Numbered from the stretch's first letter, positions 10,049 through 10,170 are shown. The stretch is DNA of 64,000 nucleotides from Candidatus Woesearchaeota archaeon (GCA_021735165.1 JAIPHP010000002.1:5491-69490), one strand, 5' to 3'. A program made the numbers and translations. The notes: generated by a model from the sequence alone, not told the origin.

Positions 10049-10170
10049 ATGAAAATCCCTGCTCCGAGTCTTCTAAGAAACTAAGTTTCTTGCGCACAGA
10101 AATCAAAACTGATTTCTTCGTGTATTTCCACCCTAAAAGCAAAGCTTTTGTGTGCAATTAAACATTTAAG
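10049..10170 (+). repeat. Intergenic repeat family 2, copy 1 (candidate small ncRNA or element remnant)
   Basis: atgaaaatccctgctccgagtct is a 23-nt exact match to 32637-32659. The copies also share gtgtat.tcca.cctaaa and the hairpin acaaaagcaaagcttttgtgt. Confidence 0.5.

Follow-up and report, generated by a model that had tools for sequence, protein, structure and literature searches.

A hairpin-rich intergenic repeat family in two co-occurring woesearchaeal genomes, with features of a non-autonomous insertion element

Introduction

What kind of sequence fills the spacer at 10049 of this woesearchaeal DNA, and why does much of it recur elsewhere in the same stretch? The DNA analysed here, called the window throughout, comprises 64,000 nt from an AT-rich archaeon (30% G+C); exact protein matches assign it to a 73-kb contig of a Candidatus Woesearchaeota MAG. 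The initial annotation described two intergenic copies with conserved ends and variable middles, and proposed either a small structured RNA, with a hint of a C/D box, or the remnant of a mobile element. Here we describe a family that extends to a second genome, and we conclude that the window sequences are most likely a minor selfish repeat rather than a snoRNA-like gene.

Results

Copies in the window

Exact matches to the 23-mer ATGAAAATCCCTGCTCCGAGTCT are confined, within the window, to copies 1 and 2, both on the + strand (Table 1). No third site was found there even when up to three mismatches were accepted, and in 100 shuffles searched at the same tolerance the chance expectation was 0. 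The identical 5' block described previously was thereby confirmed. In all three copies that carry the block (the third lies in another genome; see below), the shared sequence sets in sharply, 2-4 nt ahead of an ATG (AATAATG / ATGATG).

The shared 3' hairpin is also present in both copies, but not in identical form: the 3' block CAAAAGCAAAGCTTTTGTGT is exact at 32797, whereas at 10134 it carries one mismatch and reads TAAAAGC, which makes the outermost hairpin pair U.G. The common GTGTAT..CCTAAA block was recovered as the motif GTGTATNTCCANCCTAAANGCA at 10120 and 32713. Copy 2 is longer mainly by ~64 nt inserted between CCTAAA and AAAAGC, in agreement with the internal insertion that had been suggested, but its end had been placed too early: the copy runs ~50 nt further, to ~32872. 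This extra stretch is homologous to the copy in L001, a locus of the second genome (local alignment of TATTAAACTCC.. with TATTAAACCCC.., 33/38), and CACAAT within it pairs with ATTGTG at 32709-32714. The GGGGT/ACTCC stem of copy 2 is split by a ~55-nt insert with two small hairpins. Where copy 1 has its AGAAAC-TAA-GTTTCT hairpin, copy 2 and the L001 copy have a different one. The flanks of copies 1 and 2 are unrelated, so the copies do not belong to a longer duplicated segment that includes neighbouring genes.

A third, decayed copy was retrieved by nhmmer with the L001 element as query. Its left edge possibly lies as far left as 50290.

Table 1. Coordinates of family members and their parts
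Feature	Position	Strand	Basis or remark
Copy 1, shortened rearranged member	10045-10165	+	fold z = -3.4 on +, -1.9 on -
Copy 1, 5' block AATAATGAAAATCCCTGCTCCGAGTCT	10045-10071	+	23-mer part, 10049-10071
Copy 1, hairpin AGAAAC-TAA-GTTTCT, directly 3' of the 5' block	10076-10090	+	sequence and MFE fold
Copy 1, 3' domain	10090-10157	+	closing stem TTGCGCAC (10090-10097) / GTGTGCAA (10150-10157)
Copy 1, hairpin inside closing stem	10098-10117		
Copy 1, motif GTGTATTTCCACCCTAAAAGCA inside closing stem	10120-10141		
Copy 1, hairpin AAAAGC-AAA-GCTTTT inside closing stem	10135-10149		
Copy 2	32633-32875	+	z = -3.9 on + (whole element); z = -5.7 for 32733-32862
Copy 2, C-box look-alike ATGATGA (copy 2 only)	32634-32640	+	
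Copy 2, 23-mer	32637-32659	+	exact match
Copy 2, motif GTGTATCTCCAGCCTAAATGCA	32713-32734	+	homologous to L001 GTCTATCTCCGCCCTAAAGG
Copy 2, stem GGGGT (32788-32792) / ACTCC (32848-32852)	32788-32852	+	homologous to L001 hairpin GGGGT-ATTAA-ACCCC
Copy 2, insert hairpin AAAAGC-AAA-GCTTTT	32798-32812		
Copy 2, insert hairpin AAATGC-AAA-GCATTT	32822-32836		followed by ATTTTTATT
Copy 2, 3' end CGCTAGCGCACAATAAA	32856-32872	+	87% identity to L001 3' end
Copy 3, decayed, without 23-mer, 3' domain present	50303-50415	+	CM score 82 bits; nhmmer E = 1e-6 to L001
JAI-2, second JAIPET01 copy	L094 ~5202-4982	-	nhmmer with L001 element, E = 2e-7
Family 3' domain pattern ..TATCGACCTAAAGG.C.GGGTATTAAACCCC..CGCTAGCGCGCAAT			

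Wherever the context is known, a stop codon immediately precedes the copy, and most of these copies separate convergent genes. From the end of copy 1 to a Nudix ORF (10236-10688) there are 66 nt, much as had been estimated. Copy 2 is flanked by a P-type ATPase gene (ends 32572) and a subtilase gene (ends 32899) that converge on it, a position that, as noted previously, is not that of a 5' leader. Copy 3 occupies the entire spacer between a DUF1385 gene (49432-50376) and a convergent gene.

Two further short repeat families occur in the window, one of them having inverted ends. The first consists of direct repeats of 40-55 nt, ..GACCTGTYTTAACTCCACATCGCAGAG(T/C)CCATCA, at 3409-3448, 4621-4675 and 9942-9998. 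The first two lie on either side of a Fic/DOC gene (3457-4461, - strand), which is located downstream of tRNA-Ala and has a nucleotidyltransferase/HEPN pair (4777-5842) as its neighbour; the third precedes copy 1 by ~50 nt. The second family, of ~165-190 nt, has two members that are 85-89% identical (42396-42586 and 59796-59985), inverted ends GGTGTGTCYCAAG.. / ..GGGACACACC and a fold with z = -4.8 on the + strand. It was not found in any other locus examined and, from its sequence, looks like a MITE. Repeats also occur within a coding region: a 1170-aa ORF without a Pfam match (5953-9465, - strand) contains two internal repeat sets of ~102-114 nt (D3 and D6).

Members in a second genome

A scan of one genome per species yielded one extra exact 23-mer, at L001 1094-1116 of JAIPET01, a second Candidatus Woesearchaeota MAG; further copies thus exist outside the window. 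Over the 27 nt at 1090-1116 this locus matches the 5' block of copy 1 at 27/27 positions, compared with 25/27 between copies 1 and 2. The L001 element (1090-1236; 146 nt, z = -5.2) is the best-preserved member, and its fold has two domains. A 10-bp long-range stem, TGAAAATCCC / GGGATTTTCA, closes domain 1 and takes up half of the 5' block. In domain 2, enclosed by ATTGTGC / GCGCAAT, are TATCGACCTAAAGG, the motif TATC..CCTAAAGG and the hairpin GGGGT-ATTAA-ACCCC; an A-rich tail, AATAAATAAATAA, follows. The unit CTATC..CCTAAAGG.CGG.GTATTA is present twice in tandem (1116-1150 and 1180-1210); the two units fold into imperfect hairpins that resemble one another, are in direct orientation and each contain a conserved mismatch.

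The L001 query also retrieved JAI-2, whose domain 2 is 87% identical and whose long-range stem differs (GAAAACTTTTTT / AAAAAAGTTTTC). A fragment, GTGTATTCCTTAAAAGCAAAGCTTTTG, lies in sense orientation in an operon spacer of JAIPET01 (locus L003). So far the family thus comprises three copies in the window, and two copies and one fragment in JAIPET01; the 5' block is absent from 2/5 copies (copy 3 and JAI-2).

Elsewhere on L003, a ~160-nt long hairpin (8777-8935, z = -5.5) starts with TAATATGAAACCCT and ends with AGGGTTTCATAAT. Its start faintly recalls the 5' block; homology was not detected. Just upstream of a NUDIX gene in the same locus, a myo-inositol-phosphate-synthase-like frame (9120-10200) with an in-frame TAA is either a pseudogene or a sequencing error.

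A domain-2 covariance model (R1) retrieved only the known family loci in 1.2 Mb scanned. Fuzzy regular expressions, nhmmer and the R1 model detected no members in 80 metagenome loci of distant relatives (~1.1 Mb). Three exact patterns gave 0 matches in the IMG/VR viral contigs, phage and plasmid collections gave no BLAST match, and the JGI metagenomes held 0 exact matches for a 20-mer. In the collections searched, the family was found only in two co-occurring uncultivated DPANN archaea. Contigs of both genomes are present in run SRR12088349, and the two are distinct lineages from the same sample.

Five Logan contigs from both genomes (L002, L005, L011, L095 and L096) end within family members, with break points at ~10095 and ~32817 of the window, ~1143 of L001 and ~5018 of L094. 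Such ends fit the branching of an assembly graph at repeats, low coverage being an alternative cause; they suggest that the samples hold more copies or variants than the MAGs show.

The 23-mer as an attachment site or a reading frame

Since the two window copies are direct repeats, the 23-mer could be a leftover attachment site, either the 3' end of a tRNA gene duplicated by an integrase or the direct repeats of a 22.6-kb element (10049-32659). Its AAATCCC.GCTC stretch does resemble the T-arm and acceptor 3' strand of tRNA-Gly (11/12). The implied tRNA, ending in ..AAATCCCTGCTCCGAGT, would have to start with C1, however, and no such tRNA was found; we rated the likeness as chance and rejected a tRNA remnant. 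Moreover, the 22.6 kb between the copies carries housekeeping genes (AlaRS, G6PD, 6PGD, Elp3, ATPase and others) and no integrase, the copies share far more than a core site, and JAIPET01 has a single 23-mer. We therefore regard an attachment site as very unlikely.

In each of the three copies with the block, translation from the initial ATG gives MKIPAPSL, and copies 1 and 2 differ immediately behind the block by two substitutions that leave the amino acids unchanged (CTT CTA versus CTG CTT). A micro-protein gene, MKIPAPSL.., was considered, with the ATG of the 23-mer as its start codon and possibly a leaderless mRNA. The sense ORFs are only 11, 30 and 11 aa long, however, and diverge or stop right after codon 8-11, while the shared blocks further downstream lie in different frames. 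Identity at 27/27 nt, wobble positions included, in the face of saturated silent sites (see below) is no coding signature. In addition, copy 3 and JAI-2 do not have the ORF, and neither the sense nor the antisense ORFs occur in a collection of 15 billion proteins. The antisense ORFs were discarded as candidates, being in different frames in copies 1 and 2. We regard a micro-protein, too, as very unlikely.

Comparison with known RNA classes

The TGATGA noticed at the 5' edge of copy 2 is present, within ATGATGA, in that copy only. Together with an archaeal host that has intron-bearing tRNAs, it raised the idea of an archaeal box C/D (snoRNA-like) guide RNA. At the place of the C box, however, copy 1 and L001 read AATAATGA. 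The D-box sequence CTGA is absent from copy 2 and L001, so that L001 has neither box, and the sole CTGA of copy 1 (10109) lies inside a hairpin arm. The UGA of L001 pairs with UCA by Watson-Crick pairs and would form no K-turn. The elements measure 113-240 nt, not 50-70 nt, and the sole C/D match, DdR17 on the opposite strand, reached 19 bits where the gathering score is 80. No strong duplex was found with anything in the window, tRNAs included. Box C/D identity is thus refuted on its defining boxes, and we attach practically no probability to it.

The recommended covariance-model search likewise produced no family. At gathering thresholds, Rfam 15 reported only tRNAs in the window and in L001, L003 and L006; permissive scans of L001 1040-1300 and window 32580-32900 gave only sub-threshold chance matches. 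Inspected by eye, the L001 fold fits none of H/ACA, K-turn, hammerhead, SRP, RNase P or tRNA-like structures.

Rfam identified seven tRNA genes in the window, four of them with intervening sequences of 32-60 nt (2130-2261, 38204-38324, 42055-42163 and 43084-43189); ARAGORN in default mode reported just the three without an interruption. At L003 14325-14447, JAIPET01 has a nearly identical counterpart, intron included, of the tRNA at 38204-38324.

Empty sites in relatives

To place the copies among related genomes, we compared the gene pairs that flank them. Around the L001 copy, a 177-aa gene and a convergent 81-aa gene are 302 nt apart. At the same gene pair the spacer is 40 nt in the window's own MAG (locus L007, assigned to it by the accession series MCF78715xx-MCF78719xx) and 30 nt in a third lineage (L008); the convergent gene is 83% identical. 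At the site of copy 3, JAIPET01, L092 and L093 have a spacer of 0-4 nt or overlapping genes. Conversely, the 6PGD and 6PGL genes overlap in the window, but in JAIPET01 they are separated by 151 nt that include the module GTGTATTCC..AAAAGCAAAGCTTTTG. At all three fully syntenic sites (L001 copy, copy 3 and L003 fragment) the relative thus has a spacer of 0-40 nt or overlapping genes. Copy 2 is syntenic with relatives on one side only, and no element was found downstream of the ATPase orthologues in L003 and L006. No copy (0) is shared in position between the genomes.

Copy 3 has also altered a protein: MCF7871574.1, of the DUF1385 family, has 314 aa, the last 24-30 of which are translated from the copy, as compared with ~290 aa in its orthologues, which end in ..CM..E.K.

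Orthologous proteins of the window and JAIPET01 are 51-80% identical, and third codon positions agree at 48-61%; silent sites between both genomes are saturated. Against this background the elements, at unrelated loci, retain 27/27, 25/26, 33/38 and 30/38 identities between genomes, with 79-87% in the 3' domains. High identity in the face of saturated neutral sites indicates that, once the genomes had diverged, the family either spread or was exchanged.

The same comparison bears on a cis-acting function. Hairpins after stop codons could stabilise or terminate the upstream or convergent transcripts, as do REP elements in E. coli mRNAs. The position of the copies directly after stop codons, mostly in convergent spacers, would suit such a 3'-end module, as would the L003 fragment, in sense orientation within an operon, and the A-rich tail, which on the opposite strand is a T-run right after the stop codon of the convergent gene (32873-32885 and 50405-50415). 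However, the corresponding sites of relatives have spacers of only 0-40 nt or overlapping genes, which makes such a module dispensable. It would also leave the sequence-invariant 27-mer unexplained, copy 3 has lost its fold (z = -0.4), and a convergent spacer is the least harmful landing place for any insertion. On this account the hairpins would persist for their usefulness; we think it unlikely.

Fold, strand and the case for an RNA

Few spacers in the window are as structured as those with copies 1 and 2. The two strands differ little in folding, the + strand having slightly better z-scores. We also compared changes that give a G.U wobble on one strand and an A.C mismatch on the other. These asymmetries were split about evenly. 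The - strand is favoured by both unit hairpins of L001 and by the inner hairpins in JAI-2 and in copy 3, the + strand by the closing stem of copy 1 and, in copy 2, by the GAUAC/GUGUC hairpin and the GGGGU/ACUCC stem. In the three alignable 3' domains, 87.7% of cells pair and there is one double change, a result equalled by 182/500 shuffles in this comparison of only three sequences. Some stems have changes on both sides, such as TGAAAATCCC/GGGATTTTCA of L001 versus GAAAACTTTTTT/AAAAAAGTTTTC of JAI-2, or AAAAGC/GCTTTT as compared with AAATGC/GCATTT; the same picture would be expected if distinct repeat subfamilies had matched inverted ends. With an even wobble split and covariation at the level of shuffles, RNA-specific selection is not visible.

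These data bear on the small-RNA half of the original proposal. The copies might be candidate sibling small non-coding RNA genes on the + strand, transcribed from their own promoters just upstream of the 27-mer and multiplied by duplication; the 5' block would serve as seed or protein-binding site, and the variable hairpin-rich body would give stability. The sharp onset of conservation fits this, as do an AT-rich TATA-like sequence ~22-31 nt upstream, the predicted unpaired state of the 5' block in copies 1 and 2, the structured spacers with their slight + bias, and the stem of copy 2 followed by ATTTTTATT (32822-32845). Sibling trans-acting sRNAs such as OmrA/OmrB and Qrr have a near-identical 5' seed, a divergent middle and a structured 3' part, and the copies, as paralogues with the same layout of conserved ends and variable middle, resemble them.

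On the other hand, the putative seed is locked in the 10-bp stem of the best-preserved copy and missing from 2/5 copies, and, in contrast to OmrA/OmrB and Qrr, the copies are non-syntenic, with none at a shared site in the two genomes, and are known here from sequence alone. The window offers no convincing target, the best non-self duplex (-22.6 kcal/mol) lying inside a coding region. TATA-like strings are expected by chance at 30% G+C. The wobble asymmetries show no + preference, and the covariation is not significant. What keeps this possibility alive is that the 5' block is conserved beyond the remaining element, and we hold it as the main, though tentative, alternative.

A structured archaeal RNA element of a new kind, with an invariant 23-27-nt 5' segment and a conserved 3' domain that act as RNA (for example as seed or protein handle) and an ability to spread between co-occurring DPANN genomes, seems to us doubtful. 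Its spread might possibly involve an RNA intermediate, at which the conserved 3' domain, the A-rich tail and one copy possibly without its 5' part would hint.

Discussion

Our analysis favours, with moderate confidence, a lineage-restricted, modular, hairpin-rich, non-coding and non-autonomous insertion element. In its favour, no copy is shared in position, and at all three fully syntenic sites the element is absent from a related genome; these empty sites tip the original choice between small RNA and mobile remnant towards the latter. Mosaic, nested and truncated copies are as expected of decaying repeats.

We propose that the elements spread into the gene-end spacers of two co-occurring genomes after their divergence. 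The window copies are, in this view, derivatives. Copy 2 retains the 5' block and domain 2, carries nested small-hairpin insertions and has lost the 3' strand of the domain-1 stem; copy 1 is apparently a deletion derivative of a copy-2-like form, and copy 3 has decayed and lacks the 5' block. A copying or moving machinery may recognise the 5' block, invariant over 23-27 nt, together with the conserved 3' domain, which would explain near-identical ends around a reshuffled interior. As the copies sit just after stop codons, they may be transcribed passively, and a cellular function would not be required to explain them.

Some observations count against an insertion element. Its copy number is low, JAIPET01 has a single exact 23-mer, intact copies fold far better than shuffles (z = -5.2), and some stems have changed on both sides. 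The 5' block (27/27) is also better conserved than the other homologous segments (70-87%); this extra conservation could equally reflect an RNA or a protein-binding function.

The element as a whole has no terminal inverted repeats, its left end AATAATGAAAATCC not being an inverted copy of its right end GCGCRCAATAAA; an inverted pair of 10-12 bp closes only domain 1 of L001 and JAI-2. Comparison of filled with empty sites revealed no evident target-site duplication >2 nt, within boundaries uncertain by several nt. No transposase, integrase or reverse transcriptase was seen, either in window ORFs of 150 aa or more or in the other loci examined, and neither an HUH/Y1 transposase nor a RAYT was seen in ~64 kb of the window genome and ~50 kb of JAIPET01. 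With no TIRs, no evident target-site duplications and no mobilising enzyme seen, we file the family as a repeat that behaves like REP, BOX or MITE-type elements and belongs to no named family.

The BOX elements of Streptococcus pneumoniae and the REP/BIME and ERIC elements of enterobacteria are short (~100-250 nt), non-coding, intergenic, modular and strongly folding. Their outer parts are conserved and their middle is variable, they lie after gene ends, and they are present in some relatives and absent from others. The archaeal family has all these features in common with them. It differs in its archaeal (DPANN) host, its very low copy number and its ends, which are not inverted copies; there is no sequence similarity, and no RAYT or other associated enzyme was identified.

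Archaeal MITEs (e.g. SM1-4 of Sulfolobus) are also similar in being non-autonomous, non-coding and intergenic, in their narrow taxon and in insertion polymorphism at syntenic sites. Dispersed non-coding copies with insertion polymorphism are what the five copies and one fragment in two genomes display, whereas, of the features that define MITEs, TIRs were not found for the whole element and target-site duplications were not evident beyond 2 nt. We know of no parent IS for the family. A published survey lists a woesearchaeal genome among the archaea with the highest MITE density (PMC11602168).

The lack of TIRs and of evident target-site duplications and the asymmetric ends recall IS200/IS605-derived PATEs and REP-like ends of single-strand transposons. 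So might the two similar imperfect hairpins in direct orientation in L001, although the window copies keep only one arm. Unlike PATEs, the family has no conserved target tetranucleotide at the left end (AATA, AATA and TATG; flanks GAATA, AAATA and GTATG), and TnpA/TnpB were not seen in the DNA examined (~64 kb of the window genome and ~50 kb of JAIPET01).

If an insertion element is the true reading, a sequence-defined small hairpin-rich repeat is active in very compact DPANN genomes and has probably been exchanged between two lineages that share a lake. The repeat alters spacer lengths and the C-terminus of an annotated DUF1385 protein, and it breaks short-read assemblies; knowledge of it should help in MAG curation and in tracing gene flow among co-occurring Woesearchaeota. 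Its significance is modest, as the family is small and narrow, belongs to a general kind already known and opens no major question. It would matter more if the 27-mer were an RNA seed or the handle of an as yet undescribed mobilisation system.
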